This document shows positions 11,951-38,387 of a stretch of DNA of 44,851 nt, piece by piece (the first letter of the stretch is position 1; the number at the start of each line of letters is the position of its first letter). A model generated the notes under the pieces. The model was not told the DNA's origin, ran no database searches, and was given only the letters and a program-made list of their open reading frames with translations. A program made the position numbers and the translations under genes. Origin of the DNA: a virus (lineage: Duplodnaviria > Heunggongvirae > Uroviricota > Caudoviricetes); the IMG/VR virus record IMGVR_UViG_2974654489_000001, positions 1 through 44,851 of that record; one strand, written 5' to 3'.

Positions 11951-12363
11951 TGGGCTACTTTGAGGACTTAACCAAAGCGTTCGATGTGCCGCTGGTAGCC
12001 TTCGGAACCACCAACGGCATCAGGGTAGCGCTTGAGAACATCGACGCGCCGACGTCAACCGATACGCCGTATCTGGCAAGTTACATGTTGCTGGCGGATA
12101 CGGAGCAGGCGGATTTGTTCTTTACGGAACAACGCTCCGGCATCTATCAGGTCGACATTAACTACGCATCGGTGAAAGGTAGCGCGCCAATCAATAAAAT
12201 GGCAGACTTACTTAACACGGCATTCAAAGCAGGTAAGTCATTTTCACGTAACGACATCTGCGCCGAGGTTCAATCGGTTAGCCTGGGGCCGCTGATTGTA
12301 GAAAACGGATGGGCCAAACGGCCATTGTCAATTAACTTTATCGCATTCACCAAGAGGCTGTGA
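11950..12363 (+). CDS. Putative tail terminator protein
   Basis: 137 aa immediately upstream of major tail protein; positional. Confidence 0.45.
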   Translation: MGYFEDLTKAFDVPLVAFGTTNGIRVALENIDAPTSTDTPYLASYMLLADTEQADLFFTEQRSGIYQVDINYASVKGSAPINKMADLLNTAFKAGKSFSRNDICAEVQSVSLGPLIVENGWAKRPLSINFIAFTKRL

Positions 12364-12365
12364 AT

Positions 12366-13532
12366 ATGGCTACAACTCCTTTTAAGGGCGCGAATACCGC
12401 GCAATTCTATGTGGCGGAAGTTACCCCGGGCGTGACCCCAGACAACCCTGTCTGGTCGCCGTTGCGTAACACTGGCGGTGTTCCAGCTATTACCCGAGAC
12501 ACGCTGACCTCCAACGAACTGGACGGCAGCCGTGAAACTACATCCATCCGCACCGGCAACAAGCAGGTTAGCGGAGAATACGCTATTGAGCTTAGTTCGA
12601 AAAGCCAGGACGACTGGCTGGCGGGTGCTTTAGGCTCCACGTGGCAATCCGGTAGTTCTCTGACAGGGCTATCAATTACCGTCGCGCCCGCCGGCAAGAC
12701 GTTCACACGCGCCGAAGGTAGCTTTATTACCGACGGCGTTGAAGTGGGCGACCTGATTGCGTTTACCGACTTAACGGGTGATAACGCAAAACCGTTTATT
12801 GTTACCGCAGTAGATGCTCTGGCAGTAACCGGTGCTGGTATCCAGCACACTCTGACCGCAGAGACTGCCACTACCGCTGCTAAGACCGGCGACAAACTGG
12901 AAACCGGCAGTCAGTGTAAGACGTTCTCTATTCTCACCTGGTACAAAGGCCAGTGCGGCGGGGCCAGTGTATATACGCTGACCAAAGGCGTAGAAGTTTC
13001 CGGTTTTACCATCGAACAGGCGGTTAATGCAATGGTAACTGGCAGCTTCCCGTTCATCGGTCGCACTCAGGAGATTCTCACCGAGCAGCCGTCCGGTTCC
13101 GATTTCTCATCTGTTACGTTTGGCGATGAGCCTTTCTCTTCGGTTGACGTTTCCGTGTTCGATGGCTCTACGCCGTTGCGCTGCGACAGTCTGACCATCA
13201 CCAACGACAACAGCGCGTCCGCACAGTTCGAACTTGGCAACACTAACGTTGCGTTTGTGGAGCGTAGTCGCGCGGCTAACACCTTCTCCATCTCTGGTAA
13301 GCTGTACGACATGGCGATGATTCAGAAGTTTATCAACGAGCAGCAGGTGGAGATTAACTCTATTCTGGCGGGGGTAAACGGGGCTATGTCTTTCAGCCTG
13401 AAACGCGCAGAGCTTACGGCTGTTACACCAGAGATTGGGGGGCCAGAGTCAATCACCCAGTCCATTGAAGGGCAGGCTACTGGCAACCAGTACCAGTCGT
13501 CTATTGTCATCCAGCGTATCACCTACGCATAA
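12366..13532 (+). CDS. Major tail protein
   Basis: ATG 12366 after AAGAGG RBS; T/S/G-rich beta-type protein followed by strong terminator; positional. Confidence 0.6.
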   Translation: MATTPFKGANTAQFYVAEVTPGVTPDNPVWSPLRNTGGVPAITRDTLTSNELDGSRETTSIRTGNKQVSGEYAIELSSKSQDDWLAGALGSTWQSGSSLTGLSITVAPAGKTFTRAEGSFITDGVEVGDLIAFTDLTGDNAKPFIVTAVDALAVTGAGIQHTLTAETATTAAKTGDKLETGSQCKTFSILTWYKGQCGGASVYTLTKGVEVSGFTIEQAVNAMVTGSFPFIGRTQEILTEQPSGSDFSSVTFGDEPFSSVDVSVFDGSTPLRCDSLTITNDNSASAQFELGNTNVAFVERSRAANTFSISGKLYDMAMIQKFINEQQVEINSILAGVNGAMSFSLKRAELTAVTPEIGGPESITQSIEGQATGNQYQSSIVIQRITYA

Positions 13533-13535
13533 AAC

Positions 13536-13561
13536 TAAGGCCCCTTTCGGGGCCTTTTTCT
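13536..13561. terminator. Bidirectional intrinsic terminator (AAGGCCCC-TTTC-GGGGCCTT)
   Basis: 8-bp GC stem with A tract upstream and T tract downstream between convergent genes. Confidence 0.7.
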
Positions 13562-14115
13562 TACAAACCTAATTTTAAAGCAATGTCTATAACGTTCGAT
13601 TTAACGTCACCCGGTATGATATAGGTGTCGTAATCTTTTACACCACTAACATCATACAGGTAGCCACGGCTATCCCCGTCAAACGTGTAGCCGTCTCGGT
13701 GCAAGCGAACAATTCGCACGTCATGCCCAGCGGCGACGATAGGGGCCACTTCACTGGCGAATCCACCGTCGGAAACTACAAAAACTTCGTTGCCGCCGGG
13801 CAAGTTTTCAGCAAGATACTTACCGAAATAATCACTACCAAGTACCGGTTTAATGAATTGTTCAGAGATAGCAATCATGAACTGACGTCGCGACAAACCA
13901 TTAAGGAAGCCTTCCGGCTTTTCTTTCCGCGCTCGGTCGTCGTAGCCGTCGAGAAATTCGTGGTAAGCATCAGGGCCTAACGCCGCCAGGGCAATATTGA
14001 ACATTGGATTCTTGAAACTGGCAGTTCCTTTTGCAAAGCCCATTTCTACCAGCGCCATAGCAAGAGTGTCTTTCCCGCAACCAGCAGGACCATTAAGAAT
14101 AATTACCTTAGCCAT
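13561..14115 (-). CDS. P-loop nucleotide or nucleoside-monophosphate kinase
   Basis: Walker A ILNGPAGCGKDT at N-terminus; overall layout resembles phage dNMP kinases. Confidence 0.6.
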   Translation of the reverse strand: MAKVIILNGPAGCGKDTLAMALVEMGFAKGTASFKNPMFNIALAALGPDAYHEFLDGYDDRARKEKPEGFLNGLSRRQFMIAISEQFIKPVLGSDYFGKYLAENLPGGNEVFVVSDGGFASEVAPIVAAGHDVRIVRLHRDGYTFDGDSRGYLYDVSGVKDYDTYIIPGDVKSNVIDIALKLGL

Positions 14116-14600
14116 TATTTATCACTCCCGTGCGATTTTAAGTGTGTAGAGTTCCCGTTACAGTCGTATTCAGTAACCGCGTGAGTGGTTATACCGAGGC
14201 CGCGGAAATGCTTTATTACCGCTGGCGAGTCGTCGAACGCACACAAGATTCTTTCTAGCCCGATCGCACGCAACACTTCTTCTTTAATTACGATGTCTTT
14301 TCTGTTGTCGTGTTTGCTGCGCATGATTAGCTGATAAAATTCGACGCGGTGGCGCTGCAACCACATTCTGGTTTCTTTTTCTGCGTCATCACTACGGCCC
14401 GTTAAGATAATAACGGCATAGCGACGATTAAGGGCGTTACACAGTTCGATGTTATCCCTAATGGGTTCATCATCTTTGCACGCCATGTTAAATGGCTTCC
14501 ACGCCCATGTTTCGTTGTAGTTATCTTTCGGCAGCAGGTGTAAACGATGCGTACCATCCGCCAATGTTCCATCTAAATCGAAAATTACAATGTCTTTCAT
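14115..14600 (-). CDS. HAD-superfamily phosphatase (polynucleotide 3-prime phosphatase or nucleotidase-like)
   Basis: HAD motif I FDLDGTL at residues 7-13; further motifs (ILTGR, RKDIVIKEE, FDDSP) resemble the phosphatase domain of T4 polynucleotide kinase as recalled from memory. Confidence 0.6.
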   Translation of the reverse strand: MKDIVIFDLDGTLADGTHRLHLLPKDNYNETWAWKPFNMACKDDEPIRDNIELCNALNRRYAVIILTGRSDDAEKETRMWLQRHRVEFYQLIMRSKHDNRKDIVIKEEVLRAIGLERILCAFDDSPAVIKHFRGLGITTHAVTEYDCNGNSTHLKSHGSDK

Positions 14601-15727
14601 CCCAGCATCTCCGGTGAAATAGTTAAACGTGCGACCTCGCCATATTCGGCGCTATAAGTAATTACATTTGCACTACGGCCTGACATCCATCCGCCGCGGG
14701 AAGCGTAGGCATCTTTCGCCGCCAGGGTGCGGTGTTGCTCAACAATCATGTTACGGCTTTCTACGATCTTCTGGTGATGCAGGTGGCCTACGTGGGCGTA
14801 GCTATAGACACTCTCACCGAACGCTTTGCGGAACTTAGCGATCATAACCGGTTCAATAGCGTCGAATCGTGCTTTATGTCCGTGGTGGAAGAACAGGGTC
14901 GTTTTGCCGTGCTGCACCATCTTATAAACATCCGGCGACGTATCGACGAACACACGCGGCTCATTGTCGTACAGCGTACTGAACATCTCAGCTAACCAAA
15001 TCATCCCACTTTCGTCGTGGTTCCCCTGCACGATAAGCAAGCGAACATTTTTATGTTTAACGAGAGCCATATCAACAACACGGCGGACCATACGGATCAT
15101 GTAGCGGACCAGTTTCTGGTAGCGCGTGTCAGCGTCAAGAACATTACCGCTTGCCGGGGTAACGGCAACCAGACTGTCGAAGTGCGCAAGGTCGCCTAGC
15201 AGGTTAATAACACCCGTACCCGCGTCTGGTGCTTTCTGGAATGCCGCGTCGAACCAGCGGGAGAACAGGTCTTCCGCGATTTTCATGTCCCAGTCGTCTC
15301 CGCTCTCGTCGCCCCAGGCCAGCATACCGAGATGGAAATCAGATATCGTGTAAAGATTGAGTAGCTTGTCGTCGCGTTTAGCTCGAGTCGCTTTAACAGG
15401 CGCAACTGGGGTAATCTCTGACTTCATCCCCTCAATTACGGCTTTCATCAACTCGACCTGACGCTCGACATCGGTGTCAGTCTTAACCCATTGCAATTTA
15501 GTGTTGCCAAACTCGTCCACCAGGGACGACGTCCCTTTAATCTTGTAGCCGTCCGGTACAAGGTGACTAACGTCACGCCCGTGGCCCACGCCTTTCTTTG
15601 CCAGTTTCGCTTTGCGGATACGAATAACGCGGTCTGAGATGCCGTATTTACGGGCGATATCGATATTCTTCATACCGGCGTTCAATTCTTCCTGCAACTG
15701 TTCGTCGGTTATTTTCTTCCGGGCCAT
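14597..15727 (-). CDS. Calcineurin-like metallophosphoesterase with N-terminal HTH domain
   Basis: Motifs DFHLG, GDLAHFD, QGNHDE, HHGH, GHLHH; N-terminal IDIARKYGISDRVIRIRKAKL helix-turn-helix. Confidence 0.7.
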   Translation of the reverse strand: MARKKITDEQLQEELNAGMKNIDIARKYGISDRVIRIRKAKLAKKGVGHGRDVSHLVPDGYKIKGTSSLVDEFGNTKLQWVKTDTDVERQVELMKAVIEGMKSEITPVAPVKATRAKRDDKLLNLYTISDFHLGMLAWGDESGDDWDMKIAEDLFSRWFDAAFQKAPDAGTGVINLLGDLAHFDSLVAVTPASGNVLDADTRYQKLVRYMIRMVRRVVDMALVKHKNVRLLIVQGNHDESGMIWLAEMFSTLYDNEPRVFVDTSPDVYKMVQHGKTTLFFHHGHKARFDAIEPVMIAKFRKAFGESVYSYAHVGHLHHQKIVESRNMIVEQHRTLAAKDAYASRGGWMSGRSANVITYSAEYGEVARLTISPEMLG

Positions 15728-15764
15728 GCTTATTCCTCGTGCTTAGGATTTGTCCTATACTAGC

Positions 15765-15971
15765 TTACTTCTCGTTAACATTCGAGTTGCACGCCCAGAT
15801 TAAAATAAAGACCCACGGCAGCAGAACCCAACCAAGAAACAGATTGGCCATGAATATCGCCAACTTCGCTTTATGGTCGCGGAAATACGCAACCAGGAAA
15901 GGTGCGAAATAGGCGAGCAGTGCAAACAGAATTAAGGAAACCGGTAAACTTGACATTTTAAACCCCTTCAT
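15765..15971 (-). CDS. Small two-TM membrane protein resembling superinfection immunity (Imm) proteins
   Basis: LLAYFAPFLVAYFRDHKAKLAIFMANLFLGWVLLPWVFILIWA matches the Imm-type family pattern as recalled; RBS GAAGGGG. Confidence 0.55.
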   Translation of the reverse strand: MKGFKMSSLPVSLILFALLAYFAPFLVAYFRDHKAKLAIFMANLFLGWVLLPWVFILIWACNSNVNEK

Positions 15972-15979
15972 TGTTGGTG

Positions 15980-16016
15980 TAAGTGAATAGTACCCTATTA
16001 TATTGGGGTGTGCAAG
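15980..16016 (-). promoter_or_regulatory. Leftward promoter cassette CTTGCAC-N7-TATAAT-AGGGTACTATTCAC with inverted repeat AATAG-N4-CTATT (15986-15999)
   Basis: Near-identical to cassettes at 6036-6076 and 38348-38387. Confidence 0.5.
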
Positions 16017-16123
16017 TAGTGTGCTAGAATAAGTTTGCGCCTAGTGTCGCACACGAAAAGCGGGTGGTTCCCGTCTGGCGCATTTACCGTTAACCAGTAA
16101 CCTCTTAACCAAAGGATTAAAGA

Positions 16124-16540
16124 ATGAAACTTTCTGATTTTTATTTCGAAGAGAAAGCACTGGTGGGCAAGAAGATGCCGATTCTGCTACCAAACGGCGA
16201 AGACTCTGGTGAGTGGCTTAACGTCGTAAGTCCCGATGCAGATGCCGCCGTTAAAGCAGGGCGTGCTTTCATTATCGCGTACCGACGCGGGCTGGCGCGT
16301 TTCGAAGAACTGGAAAAATCCGCCAAAGAATCCGGCGACTATACTGAATATAACCTGGCGATTAACGAACTGGCGGAAGACCTCAACCGACAACTCGCGG
16401 CAGAAGTCGTAAACGGCTGGAGCTTTGATGAGCCTTTCTCTAAAGAAGCATTTAACAAATTGCTGGACCAGTTCAAGGCATTAGGTACACAGGTGGCGGC
16501 GTTCCATAACGCCGAGCGCAAAGCATTACAGGGAAAGTAG
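16124..16540 (+). CDS. Tail assembly chaperone (G-like)
   Basis: 138 aa acidic protein directly upstream of tape measure; slippery site near its 3-prime end. Confidence 0.65.
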   Translation: MKLSDFYFEEKALVGKKMPILLPNGEDSGEWLNVVSPDADAAVKAGRAFIIAYRRGLARFEELEKSAKESGDYTEYNLAINELAEDLNRQLAAEVVNGWSFDEPFSKEAFNKLLDQFKALGTQVAAFHNAERKALQGK

Positions 16541-16905
16541 ACGCGCTGTACAGGTTCGCCACCTACGAGTTTGTGGATAAGCATAAAATCAGAGAGTTTG
16601 ATTCTATAGCCGACGGACACGAACAGGCGCTTATCGCGATGGGTGTAATCGATAAGAAAAAACGTGCAGCGCGACGGGGTGGGCCAGAATGCCCGCCCCT
16701 TTTTATATCCACCTTTGAGACGTACTGCGACATTAAGTTTACGCGACACGTGCGCGAGGACGCTGTAGTATTGTTTGCAAGAGAATCCGTTACGTGGCAA
16801 GACCTGAAAGCCTATCTCGATGTTACGCAAAAACAGCTTAGCCTGTTCGAGATAGACATTATCATGGGCTTAGAAGCAATCTTTGAAGGTAGAAATCATG
16901 GCTGA
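16124..16905 (+). CDS. Tail assembly chaperone GT-like fusion produced by programmed -1 frameshift
   Basis: The -1 frame is open from 16510 to 16905 and joins the G frame at heptamer G GGA AAG. Confidence 0.55.
16531..16537 (+). other. Programmed -1 ribosomal frameshift slippery heptamer GGGAAAG
   Basis: X XXY YYZ heptamer in the zero frame of G, 1 codon before its stop; the same heptamer is used at lambda G/T. Confidence 0.6.
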
Positions 16906-19168
16906 TACCGCTAGTTTGATAGTACGAGTATCATCGACCGGCGTCGATAAAACCACATCACAACTGAACGGGCTTACGAAGGCGGCTGGGGCCGCTGCTG
17001 CTGCCGTCGTCAGTCTGGAAACCGCTAAGCAGGTGTTCAGCGCGCTGGTGGACTCTCAGCGCAACTTCGATAAGCTGAATTCCGGCCTCATCACAATGAC
17101 CGGAAGTGCTGAGAACGCGGCTAAGGCTTTCAGCGTCCTGCAACAGTTCGCGAAAGAAACCCCATACGGGCTTAACCAGGCGGTGGAAGGCTTTACTAAG
17201 CTGGTGGCTCTGGGTCTGAATCCCAGCAAAGAAGCGTTAATCTCCTATGGCAACACCGCCGCCGCGATGGGTAAAGACCTTAATCAGATGATTGAGGCCG
17301 TGGCAGACGCCAGTACCTTTGAGTTTGAGCGACTGAAAGAGTTTGGCATCAAGTCGTCACAGCAGGCAGATACAGTGTCGTTCACGTTCCGCGGTGTTAC
17401 CACCACGGTTAAGAAGAACTCCGAAGAGATTCAGAAATACCTGCTAAACATCGGTAACACTGATTTCGCCGGGGCGATGGAAACGCGTTCGAAAACCCTT
17501 GACGGGCAGTTATCGAGCCTCGCGGACTCCTTCGATGGCCTTGTACTTGCGGTAGCGCAATCCGGTTTCGGCGACGCCGTAGGTGAGCAAGCCGCGAAGG
17601 CAGAAGACGCTATTTCGGCACTCACCGACGCCATCGCATCTAATGAGATAGCAGCGACGCTCCAGGATTGGGCGACACTGTTCAATGAATCGTTCAAGTT
17701 TATTTCTGATGCCCTGAATGACCTGGCATTCGATACCGAGGACAAATCCGCGGATATGTCAGACTCGCTGGGGGCTATACCTGATGCAATCCGTGAATGG
17801 TTGCCCGACATTCAGCAGACATTCCATGAGGTTATTGCATGGTTCCAGCGCATTGACGATTATGCGGTAGCGCTTGGCCGGACCCTCGCCGACGTGTTTG
17901 ACCCAAGCAAAACAGCGGCGCTCACATTTAAAAACCTGACCGCAGAGGCAGATGCCGCATACGACGCCAGCATAAAACGCGCAGAGGCAGAATCACAGGC
18001 CATTACCAACAGGTCTAAGCAGCGTAAGAAAGAAATTGAGGAACAGCGCAAGCAGTATAATGAGCGCAAGAAACAAGAAATTGACTTAGCCAGCCTTGTT
18101 AATAACAAGGGTGAAAATGGTGGGACCGGAAACACCAACGACAAAGACGCGAAAGCCGCCGCTAAGAAAGCGGAGCAATTGCGCAAACAGGCACAGGATT
18201 ATCTCGACACTTTGGCCCGTCAGAACAACGACGAGATAAAGGCTATTGACGCGCAGGAACAGCAGAAACTGGCTAAGGCAAAAGAGTTCTACAGCCAGGG
18301 CGCACTGTCACTGAAAGAATACGAGCAAGCAAAAACCGCTATTGTCCTAGAAGCAGGGCAAAAACGACAAGATGAACTGGATAAACGCCAGAAAGAAGCC
18401 CAGGAAAAGCAACAGAAAGGTGACGACTTCATGGCCCAGATTATGGGGCAGAACGCGACTGAGCTTGAGCTTCTCGACATCCAGGAACAGCAGAAGCTGG
18501 CGGTAGCTGATAAGTACCGCGAACAAGGGCTGATTAAAGAGGAACAGTATCAGGCGGCACTTAACGCCATCAACGAGCAGTATGCTACGAAGCGTGCTGA
18601 CGCAACGGCAACCGCCTTTGGTAATATGGCTTCAAACATCGGGGCCGCGTTGGGCGAGGCTTCTGGTGCGTACAAGGCATTCGCTATCGTGCAGGCCACT
18701 ATCGCCACATACACCGCGGCTATTGAGGCGTATAAGTCAACGGCTGCCATCCCTGTAGTCGGCCCGTTCCTGGCTCCTGTAGCTGCCGCCGCTGCCGTTG
18801 GGGCGGGTATGGCGCAGGTTTCCGCTATCAGGTCTGCGCGTGAACAGGGCGGTCAGTTATCTGCAGGGCAGGCTTCCACCATCGCGGAACGCGGTAAACC
18901 GGAAGTTATCATGCCCGCTGGTGCATCGCGCGTACGAACTGCGCAGCAGATGAAAGAAATTATGGGGCAAAACGGGTCTTCTTCCGGCGGTGATAATGTC
19001 ACCATAGTCAACAACACCACAGGGCGTGTGGATTCCGCCGTAACAGAACGTGATGACGAAGGGCGTTTACGTATTATAATCAGTGAAACAGTAGCGTCGC
19101 AGTTACAGGATAACAACTCACCGATTTCTAAAGCTCGCCGCTCTACTCGCGGTCAGCCGGGGTATTAA
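16898..19168 (+). CDS. Tail tape measure protein
   Basis: About 756 aa, alanine- and coiled-coil-rich, hydrophobic segment near C-terminus, follows G/GT; ATG 16898 after GAAGG RBS (track starts TTG 16883). Confidence 0.8.
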   Translation: MADTASLIVRVSSTGVDKTTSQLNGLTKAAGAAAAAVVSLETAKQVFSALVDSQRNFDKLNSGLITMTGSAENAAKAFSVLQQFAKETPYGLNQAVEGFTKLVALGLNPSKEALISYGNTAAAMGKDLNQMIEAVADASTFEFERLKEFGIKSSQQADTVSFTFRGVTTTVKKNSEEIQKYLLNIGNTDFAGAMETRSKTLDGQLSSLADSFDGLVLAVAQSGFGDAVGEQAAKAEDAISALTDAIASNEIAATLQDWATLFNESFKFISDALNDLAFDTEDKSADMSDSLGAIPDAIREWLPDIQQTFHEVIAWFQRIDDYAVALGRTLADVFDPSKTAALTFKNLTAEADAAYDASIKRAEAESQAITNRSKQRKKEIEEQRKQYNERKKQEIDLASLVNNKGENGGTGNTNDKDAKAAAKKAEQLRKQAQDYLDTLARQNNDEIKAIDAQEQQKLAKAKEFYSQGALSLKEYEQAKTAIVLEAGQKRQDELDKRQKEAQEKQQKGDDFMAQIMGQNATELELLDIQEQQKLAVADKYREQGLIKEEQYQAALNAINEQYATKRADATATAFGNMASNIGAALGEASGAYKAFAIVQATIATYTAAIEAYKSTAAIPVVGPFLAPVAAAAAVGAGMAQVSAIRSAREQGGQLSAGQASTIAERGKPEVIMPAGASRVRTAQQMKEIMGQNGSSSGGDNVTIVNNTTGRVDSAVTERDDEGRLRIIISETVASQLQDNNSPISKARRSTRGQPGY

Positions 19169-25468: not shown

Positions 25469-25485
25469 GGTGGGTTAAATAAAAC

Positions 25486-25511
25486 TAAGGCCCCGTTCGG
25501 GGCCTTTTCTC
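25486..25511. terminator. Bidirectional intrinsic terminator (AAGGCCCC-GTTC-GGGGCCTT)
   Basis: GC stem, A tract upstream, T tract downstream, between convergent operons. Confidence 0.7.
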
Positions 25512-38055: not shown

Positions 38056-38084
38056 GTTGACTTTTACTAAGAAATATGGTAAGC
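38056..38084 (+). promoter_or_regulatory. Sigma70-like promoter (TTGACT-17 bp-TAAGCT), paralog of the promoter at 6136-6164
   Basis: Identical hexamers and spacing. Confidence 0.5.
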
Positions 38085-38305
38085 TCAGCCTGAGCTTGTG
38101 AAGTATGAACAAGCGACCGCGGCGCGCGGCAGGCGAAACGAGCACGTGTAGCGTGTGGAGTGAGGCTCGCTAGCGCGTTTGGGAGGCCCAAAGTCTATTG
38201 TAATTCCCGCCTAAATATCTAAGTTACTGATTTGCCGTAGGATAGAACCGCAAGCTCACTCACTCACTCTTGGTGCCTTCGGCACCACGTTCGTTTCGTT
38301 TCGCT
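38085..38305 (+). ncRNA. Candidate leader RNA or small RNA (copy 2 of paralogous element)
   Basis: First 70 nt near-identical to 6165-6235; contains CACT x3 and CGTTT x2 repeats and GGTGCC-TTCG-GCACC hairpin followed by U-rich run. Confidence 0.4.
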
Positions 38306-38347: not shown

Positions 38348-38387
38348 TAATCTCTTGCACACCCCGACATAATAGGATACTATTCAC
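38348..38387 (+). promoter_or_regulatory. Promoter cassette CTTGCAC-N7-CATAAT-AGGATACTATTCAC with AATAG-GATA-CTATT (38371-38384)
   Basis: Near-identical to the cassette at 15980-16016 in opposite orientation. Confidence 0.5.

Follow-up and report, generated by a model that had tools for sequence, protein, structure and literature searches.

The four leftward genes set into the tail block of this phage are best explained, though with somewhat less than even confidence, as an early operon of DNA and nucleotide metabolism with putative substrates, analogous to the A1, Dmp and Dnk genes of phage T5 and joined by a superinfection-immunity gene. The window analysed here, the whole stretch of 44,851 nucleotides, comes from a Kagunavirus, and the operon sits within its late tail block, with the tail tube gene (12360-13532, plus strand) on one flank and the tail assembly chaperone gene (16124-16540, plus strand), followed by the tape measure gene, on the other. 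The ORF listing of the window places all four genes on the minus strand over 13561-15971, as had been described in a first-pass annotation of the sequence, and the domains named there were recovered in every case by HMM and fold searches: an Imm homologue, an HTH-metallophosphoesterase, a PNKP-type HAD phosphatase and a P-loop kinase. Three hypotheses of function had been offered, end healing, nucleotide salvage and superinfection exclusion, and of these the nucleotide-salvage unit is the best supported. The operon looks more like equipment for DNA breakdown and nucleotide recycling than like an RNA-repair kit.

The three enzyme genes are joined by overlapping codons, with the metallophosphoesterase and HAD ORFs sharing ATGA at 14597-14600 and the HAD and kinase ORFs meeting in a stop/start overlap, TAATG, at 14115. 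Because stop and start codons overlap in this way we regard the genes as translationally coupled and as forming an operon, and because homologues are numerous for all four proteins the ORFs are taken as genuine genes and not chance ORFs. For comparison we used the annotation of fTaEco01, a 92%-identical relative whose annotated genes are matched by position by the window ORFs of at least 300 aa. The operon is probably transcribed early.

Both ends of the unit carry candidate signals for its expression. A G+C-rich hairpin at 13537-13556 (AAGGCCCC-TTTC-GGGGCCTT) lies 4 nt past the stop codon of the tail tube gene and 5 nt past that of the kinase, and it obtained a terminator-like score when both strands were scanned, with a weaker T-run on the minus strand; the bidirectional terminator proposed earlier is consistent with this result, and the hairpin serves the converging tail tube gene on the plus strand and the leftward operon on the minus strand. 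Related hairpins also occur at 5745-5765 and 25487-25507. Upstream of the operon lies a cassette at 15987-16015 on the minus strand (TTGCACACCCCAATATAATAGGGTACTAT), in which the hexamers TTGCAC and TACTAT are separated by 17 nt. It is present in three copies in the window against a chance expectation of 0 matches, the others being at 6042-6070 (minus strand) and at 38355-38383 (plus strand), where it precedes a group of small rightward genes as judged by synteny with fTaEco01. The corresponding position in fTaEco01 and in HSE2 carries the cassette too, so that the conservation claimed for it is borne out; we call it promoter-like because its hexamers are too weak to pass a sigma-70 scan.

The last gene of the operon (13561-14115, minus strand) encodes a kinase of 184 aa with the P-loop GPAGCGKDT. 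On sequence and modelled fold it is a member of the T4 gp1/T5 Dnk family of dNMP kinases and not of the polynucleotide-kinase family, and its likely substrates would be dNMPs. It matches phrog_139 at 1e-43, a family that also takes T4 gp1 (2e-65) and T5 Dnk (1e-51), both of them biochemically characterised dNMP kinases. Foldseek with its AF2 model (pLDDT 94) returned the T4 dNMP kinase 1DEK as the top PDB match (TMq 0.66) with NMP kinases next, and T4 PNK was absent from the top 50. Pairwise BLAST against T4 gp1 and T5 Dnk was weak; the P-loop reads CGKDT in the window kinase versus SGKDT in these two proteins, GKDT being common, and hhalign gave 96% over 62 columns with T5 Dnk as opposed to an alignment of just 26 columns around the P-loop with T4 PNK. 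A BLASTP match of the N-terminus to T4 PNK (8e-4) was likewise confined to the region around the P-loop. We rejected a PNK-type 5'-kinase on the grounds that the protein falls in phrog_139 and not phrog_505 and that 1DEK heads its fold matches. Homologues of the kinase were found in 1541 phage records, and no HAD-kinase fusion was seen among the 120 best.

The HAD phosphatase (14115-14600, minus strand; 161 aa, DxDxT motif) is of the PNKP type by homology, matching Pfam HAD_PNKP (PF25109) with 69.9 bits and, among PDB entries, Pnkp1 (4xrp, 2e-6) and T4 PNK. It keeps all of the T4 Pnkp phosphatase residues (D8, D10, T12, R19, T67, R69, D102, K106, D123 and D124), of which D8, D10, T67, K106 and D124 correspond to T4 Pnkp Asp165, Asp167, Ser211, Lys258 and Asp278, with residue roles taken from the T4 enzyme (PMC3592404). 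Alignment shows that every one of these catalytic residues is common to T4 Pnkp and T5 Dmp, a 5'-dNMP phosphatase, and phrog_415, which the protein matches at 6.5e-66, also holds Dmp. Pairwise BLASTP favours the T4 Pnkp phosphatase (3e-8) over Dmp (2e-3) as its nearer relative, and Dmp itself does not match HAD_PNKP. Its substrates may be 3'-phosphate ends, mononucleotides, or dNMP pools as for T5 Dmp.

The metallophosphoesterase (14597-15727, minus strand; 376 aa) has a three-helix HTH at its N-terminus (approximately residues 8-44), which a small domain of beta/alpha type links to a binuclear core (approximately 119-376) bearing the motifs DxH, GD, GNH(D/E), H and GHxH. In an alignment of 58 diverse homologues D130, H132, G178, D179, N236, H237, H282, G314 and H317 never vary, while H182 and H315 are almost always kept. 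It was assigned to phrog_704 at 2e-166, a family of 4633 clusters at 50% identity, and it fell short of the Pfam gathering scores for Metallophos (19.5 vs 21.5 bits) and Metallophos_2 (21 vs 27 bits). With its AF2 model (pLDDT 92) Foldseek gave 121 PDB matches at E<=1e-3, with the PolD DP1 exonuclease, Rv0805 and Mre11 among the nearest; TM-scores to the nucleases are only around 0.42, and Rv0805, a cyclic-nucleotide phosphodiesterase, is an equally good match. The protein is predicted to be an enzyme that needs metal and works on DNA. Its N-terminal HTH, whose own matches are weak and GerE/LuxR-like, argues for DNA as the substrate. The Rad50/SbcC partner typical of an Mre11/SbcD nuclease is not among the genes annotated in fTaEco01.

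The operon opens with an ORF of 68 aa (15765-15971, minus strand) encoding a T4 Imm-family two-transmembrane protein. Translation probably begins at the ATG at 15956, for a protein of 63 aa, because AAGGGG precedes this codon and the gene is annotated that way in fTaEco01. On the PF14373 model (Imm_superinfect; cut-off 27.9 bits) it scores 48 bits and T4 Imm itself 58 bits, and the protein matches T4 Imm directly by BLASTP (1e-9, 26% identity over 54 residues) and phrog_1039, 'immunity to superinfection', at 8e-23. Its hydropathy peaks twice, around residues 4-24 and 32-58, so that both proteins share PF14373 and two transmembrane segments; T4 Imm has 83 aa, as compared with 63-68 aa for the protein here, which is found in a siphovirus. 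By homology it is a T4 Imm relative that may confer exclusion. The superinfection exclusion suggested for the island as a whole fits this gene and no other gene of the operon.

Guernseyvirinae, Dhillonvirus and Drexlerviridae all have the metallophosphoesterase among their core genes. Across Guernseyvirinae it holds the site between the tube and chaperone genes, where only Imm and the HAD-kinase pair vary, and synteny comparison accordingly describes a core enzyme with variable cargo; the first-pass term 'accessory island' applies to the cargo but not to the enzyme. It occurs without the HAD-kinase pair in Jerseyvirus, Dhillonvirus (75% identical to the window protein), Warwickvirus and Vibrio and Rhodobacter phages, and the slot downstream of it is taken in other genomes by an HNH endonuclease, a Roi-like protein or small ORFs. 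The order metallophosphoesterase-HAD-kinase is also seen in Webervirus and in the Autographiviridae phage DT115P1 of Edwardsiella, at around 50% identity per protein and with an ATP-dependent DNA ligase directly after the trio, and in total it recurs in three phage families. Endonuclease VII, exonuclease or ligase genes adjoin the metallophosphoesterase in other phages, and in Campylobacter phage F358 a ligase lies ahead of its homologue. The kinase and HAD are widespread in large-genome phages (around 136-170 kb), some with names that suggest rV5-like or T4-like phages, and these phages were absent among the metallophosphoesterase matches listed.

The combination had been thought unusual, a view that does not hold, as annotations in dozens of GenBank records include it and its Drexlerviridae version is in print (PMC13164509); the locus itself is not new. 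In that family a 'DNA repair exonuclease' is persistent (508/522 genomes) and PNK with dNMP kinase is the commonest cargo downstream of it, which the authors relate to an enhanced nucleotide supply (PMC13164509). The Drexlerviridae locus, upstream of the lysis cassette, is homologous to that in the window (41-59% identity, same order), and in both the metallophosphoesterase is persistent and the HAD-kinase pair variable. It closes the replication module and adjoins the holin gene, whereas the window unit lies inverted inside the tail operon, flanked by the tube and chaperone genes, with a promoter-like cassette and terminator of its own and Imm as its first gene.

Under the explanation we favour, the metallophosphoesterase would be the anchor of the locus, with Imm added upstream and the coupled HAD and kinase downstream. 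It would bind DNA via its HTH and cut it, the host chromosome being the likeliest target by analogy with T5 A1; the HAD would strip phosphates from the cut products (3'-phosphate ends or mononucleotides) or trim dNMP pools, the kinase would turn dNMPs into dNDPs for phage DNA synthesis, and separately Imm would stop DNA entry of superinfecting phages. T4, T5 and T7 all degrade host DNA and each encodes its own dNMP kinase. The closest parallel is T5, in which A1 (a metallophosphatase), Dmp and Dnk are the same three enzyme types, A1 is said to be structurally related to double-strand-break repair and polymerase proofreading nucleases, the classes that also top the fold search for the window enzyme, and a small two-transmembrane protein adjoins A1 as Imm adjoins the metallophosphoesterase here; T5.005 is not in the Imm family by the PF14373 test. 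Host DNA degradation depends on A1, which also suffices for it (10.64898/2026.04.02.716235). A1 is a protein of 556 aa belonging to PHROG 1745, as distinct from PHROG 704, and homology between the two was not detected beyond the GNHD motif, with a BLASTP E of 0.28 and an hhalign value of 13% over 20 columns around GNHD. In addition the three T5 genes are dispersed, as opposed to the single operon of the window, and T5 excretes the breakdown products without recycling (10.64898/2026.04.02.716235). A further-reaching version of this explanation, possible but doubtful, is that PHROG 704 represents the long-sought host-chromosome nuclease of T1-like and related siphophages, a functional counterpart of T5 A1, with the HAD and dNMP kinase as a mobile add-on making DNA precursors from its products. 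As biological context for the favoured explanation, nucleotides from the degraded host genome are reused by T1 and TLS, and the gene behind this degradation is still to be identified (PMC11447400). Guernseyvirinae are sensitive to Ec2ApeA, whose trigger is DNA-breakdown dinucleotides, but Dhillonviruses are reported to be ApeA-resistant despite the close similarity of their metallophosphoesterase, which speaks against the nuclease reading. The favoured explanation also meets other objections: a 5'-dNMP phosphatase beside a dNMP kinase would make for futile cycling if the two had the same specificity, the ligases of DT115P1 and F358 hint at end repair, the HAD is nearer in pairwise sequence to T4 Pnkp than to Dmp, and the fold scores to nucleases are low.

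The same genes could instead heal broken ends. The HAD would remove 3'-phosphates, the kinase would phosphorylate 5'-OH ends of broken RNA or DNA, and the metallophosphoesterase, in the manner of bacterial Pnkp, would open 2',3'-cyclic phosphates or trim damaged termini; sealing by a host ligase would then counteract nucleases whose products carry 3'-P and 5'-OH ends. This is unlikely in our estimation. T4 PseT with RNA ligase 1 provides the precedent, the window HAD being homologous to the Pnkp phosphatase domain with its full set of catalytic residues, the N-terminus of the kinase retains the BLASTP match to T4 PNK noted above, and kinase, metallophosphoesterase and ligase are likewise united in bacterial Pnkp (PMC3675462). 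The ligases of DT115P1 and F358 also speak for it. The end-healing hypothesis of the first-pass annotation, directed at anticodon nucleases, is weakened all the same, its PNKP-type HAD standing but sharing its residues equally with Dmp. T4 PseT fuses kinase and phosphatase, whereas here they are separate overlapping ORFs with the phosphatase preceding the kinase, and no fusions appeared among the best kinase homologues; the PseT kinase is of PHROG 505, another family from PHROG 139, and the fold as well as the PHROG of the window kinase is that of dNMP kinases. No RNA or DNA ligase came up when the window was searched by tblastn with three queries (T4 Rnl1 and two ATP-dependent DNA ligases), and the annotation of fTaEco01 lists none. 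The metallophosphoesterase bears an HTH and is core in phages without HAD and kinase. E. coli RtcB, moreover, has no need of healed ends.

It is also improbable that the functions are unlinked, so that the metallophosphoesterase would act as a nuclease on phage DNA during replication or recombination, for instance by processing ends or by Mre11-like resection without Rad50, and the HAD-kinase pair would be independent cargo of an insertion hot spot that only raises dNTP supply. The solitary metallophosphoesterase of most lineages, the unrelated cargo in its downstream slot, its endonuclease VII, exonuclease or ligase neighbours and the large phages that carry kinase and HAD all agree with such an arrangement, but the trio keeps its order in three families, the metallophosphoesterase and HAD genes overlap at ATGA, and the annotation of fTaEco01 lists no Rad50/SbcC-like partner. 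Very unlikely is a role in anti-defence or exclusion, where the metallophosphoesterase would hydrolyse small phosphodiesters, perhaps nucleotides that act as immune signals (cf. Rv0805 and CpdA), and the HAD would degrade alarm mononucleotides such as m6dAMP, or the whole unit together with Imm would exclude competitors. The fold match to Rv0805 and the Imm homologue at the head of the operon agree with this, as does the Metis system, itself a metallophosphoesterase with a HAD: MisA has an N-terminal PUA-like sensor and a C-terminal metallophosphatase, and MisB is a HAD that degrades m6dAMP (10.1101/2025.11.05.686725). The three-helix HTH in place of a PUA-like N-terminus led us to reject identity with MisA, and PADLOC, with a database that predates Metis, matched none of the four proteins. 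Against an anti-defence role, virulent phages keep the metallophosphoesterase persistently in their core, grouped with replication genes, and the kinase would be left without a role.

The metallophosphoesterase belongs to a very large, persistent and uncharacterised phage family for which this locus is a well-defined test case. Should the HAD-kinase pair heal ends with a dNMP-kinase fold, it would represent a novel form of split Pnkp. In T1-like phages the genes for host-chromosome degradation are still to be found (PMC11447400), and the defences ApeA and Metis sense degradation products. If the metallophosphoesterase is the host-DNA nuclease, it would be the source of the DNA-breakdown signals that these defences sense, which would explain patterns of phage sensitivity and provide a handle for engineering escape.

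Four consecutive leftward ORFs lie within the tail gene block, as the first-pass annotation had described, and on the minus strand they comprise a kinase (13561-14115, 184 aa), a HAD phosphatase (14115-14600, 161 aa), a metallophosphoesterase (14597-15727, 376 aa) and an Imm-like protein (15765-15971, 68 aa). Stop/start overlaps, TAATG and ATGA, link the first three. The Imm ORF probably begins at its second ATG at 15956, giving 63 aa, as AAGGGG precedes this codon and the fTaEco01 annotation agrees with it. A megablast search with positions 12300-17000 matched 362 phage records, the best being genomes of Kagunavirus, a genus of Guernseyvirinae (K1G, K1ind1-3 and fTaEco01 among them), at approximately 92% identity over the full query. 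fTaEco01 is collinear with the entire window and carries the same four leftward genes between its 'tail tube protein' and 'tail assembly chaperone'. The initial observation was thus confirmed as a whole and its interpretation in part, with the domain calls upheld, the lead idea of a nucleic-acid end-healing module weakened and the notion of one accessory island not sustained. A search of NCBIfam yielded nothing meaningful.

The operon had been described as bounded by a bidirectional terminator and a conserved promoter cassette. Where the tail tube gene and the leftward operon converge, an 8-bp hairpin (13537-13556) scores as terminator-like on either strand, in agreement with the former. Together with its 5' flank (ATAAAACTAAGGCCCC...) this element (13529-13558) is repeated at 25479-25508 with 97% identity, close to where the rightward late genes meet the replication genes running leftward. 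The cassette TTGCACACCCCAATATAATAGGGTACTAT is a genuine repeat, present in three copies with at most 3 mismatches (15987-16015 and 6042-6070 on the minus strand, 38355-38383 on the plus strand; chance expectation 0) and kept at the corresponding position in both fTaEco01 and HSE2. As the 38.4 kb copy stands at the head of a rightward small-gene cluster, we infer that the cassette acts as a promoter and that the operon is early, and as its hexamers are weak and a sigma-70 scan did not flag it both are kept here as predictions. The same cassette (6042-6070, minus strand) heads a second leftward unit of identical architecture at 5745-6070 in the head gene block, with a leftward 81-aa ORF (5770-6015) that has a GGAGG Shine-Dalgarno and no Pfam match, and a GGCCCC terminator hairpin (5745-5765); the segment 5740-6084 is missing from fTaEco01. 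A 71-nt direct repeat of 87% identity (6136-6206 and 38056-38126) carries a good sigma-70-like promoter, TTGACT-17-TAAGCT, and since a 29-nt cassette is found no more than about 300 nt from either copy these pairs suggest two duplicated divergent control regions.

The prediction of an Imm-like two-transmembrane protein was borne out. It scored 48 bits on the Pfam Imm_superinfect model (cut-off 27.9), on which T4 Imm itself scored 58 bits, and it aligned with T4 Imm at 26% identity (E=1e-9), with two hydropathy peaks consistent with a two-transmembrane topology.

In Pfam the kinase matched as P-loop only, and single-sequence and profile searches of the PDB likewise returned only P-loops. Its family was given by phrog_139 'dNMP kinase' (1e-43 over 165 residues), which also takes T4 gp1 and T5 Dnk, while T4 PNK is assigned to phrog_505, with no phrog_139 match for its kinase half. 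The closest fold to the AF2 model (pLDDT 94) was the T4 dNMP kinase 1DEK (TMq 0.66), followed by phosphomevalonate, adenylate and UMP/CMP kinases, and T4 PNK was absent from the Foldseek top 50. By hhalign the kinase aligned with T5 Dnk at 96% over 62 columns, reaching beyond the P-loop, and with T4 PNK over 26 columns only, around the P-loop; its profile against the single T4 gp1 and T4 PNK sequences covered the N-terminal P-loop region only, a comparison which is not discriminating alone. On the family assignment, the top modelled fold and the Dnk alignment past the P-loop, the kinase is classed as of the dNMP-kinase type. Among its best 120 homologues none was long enough to be a HAD-kinase fusion.

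The metallophosphoesterase fell just under threshold on the Pfam Metallophos models and matched phrog_704 at 2e-166. A search of 1.84 billion cluster representatives found 4633 related clusters (1125 with E<=1e-30). When 58 diverse members are aligned, the residues that bind metal show no variation at D130, H132, G178, D179, N236, H237, H282, G314 and H317 and almost none at H182 and H315. In the AF2 model (pLDDT 92) three helices form a bundle at the N-terminus, followed by a flexible linker, a small unit of beta/alpha type and the phosphoesterase core, and the N-terminus gives weak GerE/LuxR-type HTH matches, which agrees with the HTH-metallophosphoesterase originally proposed. The fold is certain, with the substrate a matter of prediction. 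The best Foldseek match in the PDB was the PolD DP1 proofreading exonuclease, with the cyclic-nucleotide phosphodiesterase Rv0805 and Mre11 next, all at a TM of about 0.4. PDB sequence searches, single and profile, gave only HTH and weak SbcD matches. In a BFVD fold search the matches were all uncharacterised metallophosphoesterases of phages, and among the top 50, many of them nameless, T5 A1 was not identifiable.

The HAD phosphatase was correctly likened to the phosphatase domain of T4 polynucleotide kinase, scoring 69.9 bits on Pfam HAD_PNKP, matching Pnkp1 (2e-6) and T4 PNK in the PDB and aligning with T4 PNK by BLASTP at 3e-8. Its best PHROG, 415, is also home to T5 Dmp, a characterised 5'-dNMP phosphatase. 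In a three-way alignment each catalytic or essential residue of T4 Pnkp (roles from PMC3592404) is matched by an equivalent in the window HAD as well as in Dmp, and this conservation therefore does not separate a polynucleotide 3' end from a mononucleotide as substrate. Compared with T4 Pnkp, the HAD (14115-14600) and Dmp (124-858 of the T5 pre-early region) have about 15 additional residues in the insertion after DxDGT, where they share an 'ACKxD' stretch; this insertion may be a cap element bearing on substrate choice.

In the phage collection, tblastn found the tail tube in 493 records at >=60% identity and, at >=80% identity, the metallophosphoesterase in 290, the HAD in 55 and the kinase in 51; with any match counted the metallophosphoesterase reached 2055, and in Salmonella phages it was found in 373 records against 359 for the tail tube. 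The same site holds a 109-aa ORF, the metallophosphoesterase and a 76-aa ORF in Jerseyvirus AG11; the metallophosphoesterase, a 76-aa ORF and a Roi-like protein in Jerseyvirus F118P13; the metallophosphoesterase, an HNH endonuclease and a 76-aa ORF in Kagunavirus HSE2; and Imm, the metallophosphoesterase, an extra 187-aa gene, HAD and kinase in Kagunavirus XY1. The XY1 extra gene (4671-5234 of that locus), between metallophosphoesterase and HAD, is annotated 'calcineurin-like phosphoesterase' and has no Pfam match at E<=0.01. Since the cargo around it differs at the same site within Guernseyvirinae, the metallophosphoesterase is a conserved anchor and the flanking positions are a cargo hot spot; on these counts and four genomes the accessory label suits the surrounding cargo but not the metallophosphoesterase.

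Full-length metallophosphoesterases extend beyond Guernseyvirinae to Dhillonvirus (75% identity), Drexlerviridae and Vibrio and Rhodobacter phages, and a Campylobacter phage has a homologue without the N-terminal HTH. Across several unrelated phage groups (HK578, tonnikala, Klebsiella K2069PH1, Vibrio 92E46-1 and RcPescado) the homologue directly adjoins holin and endolysin, which may reflect no more than its place as the last gene of the replication module. The metallophosphoesterase-HAD-kinase trio keeps its order in Webervirus and, at about 50% identity per protein, in the Autographiviridae Edwardsiella phage DT115P1, where an ATP-dependent DNA ligase follows. The deposited DT115P1 dNMP kinase CDS (5181-5794 of that locus) is truncated N-terminally: an in-frame P-loop, PPASGKDT, precedes it, so the gene extends further than its annotation. 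[quoted passage not shown] The island is one more case of this already annotated module.

The same three enzyme types occur in T5 as A1, Dmp (5'-dNMP phosphatase) and Dnk (dNMP kinase). A1, a predicted metallophosphatase structurally related to repair nucleases and to exonucleases that proofread, is both required and enough by itself for degrading the host DNA (10.64898/2026.04.02.716235). In the T5 pre-early region (124-3670) a 65-aa two-transmembrane protein, T5.005, adjoins A1, and dmp lies farther down that strand, an order of gene types mirroring the island; T5.005 has no PF14373 match, lies outside the Imm family and was ruled out as an Imm equivalent. T1 and TLS break down the host genome and reuse its nucleotides, the gene responsible not having been identified (PMC11447400). 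Guernseyvirinae are sensitive to Ec2ApeA, and the deoxydinucleotides that switch it on are presumed products of the degraded host DNA. On the T5 likeness, T1/TLS reuse of host DNA and this sensitivity we tentatively favour, at a little short of an even chance, an early DNA and nucleotide-metabolism operon plus a separate superinfection-immunity gene. The HTH-metallophosphoesterase would cut DNA, the HAD would strip phosphate from ends or mononucleotides and the kinase would channel dNMPs towards dNTPs, with Imm acting apart from the trio in superinfection exclusion. Against this, the metallophosphoesterase has no homology to A1 by BLASTP or hhalign outside the GNHD motif, Dhillonviruses carry it yet are reported ApeA-resistant, the HAD is nearer in sequence to Pnkp than to Dmp, and ligases adjoin the module in two other phages.

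Those ligase neighbours, with the HAD type, would fit the end-healing module originally put first, but the kinase belongs to the dNMP-kinase family, tblastn with three ligase queries found no ligase in the window and the metallophosphoesterase is core in genomes that lack HAD and kinase, making this reading unlikely. That the genes act independently, as a recombination nuclease with unrelated cargo, agrees with the hot-spot behaviour and is nevertheless improbable given that three families show the identical gene order. A role in anti-defence, or one like that of Metis, draws on the Rv0805 fold match and on Metis also pairing a metallophosphoesterase with a HAD; the N-terminal domain of the metallophosphoesterase, however, is unlike that of Metis and PADLOC returned zero matches, and we consider this role very doubtful. 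What interest remains in the module attaches to the metallophosphoesterase, a core family as yet uncharacterised, and to the part that it may play in host DNA degradation.
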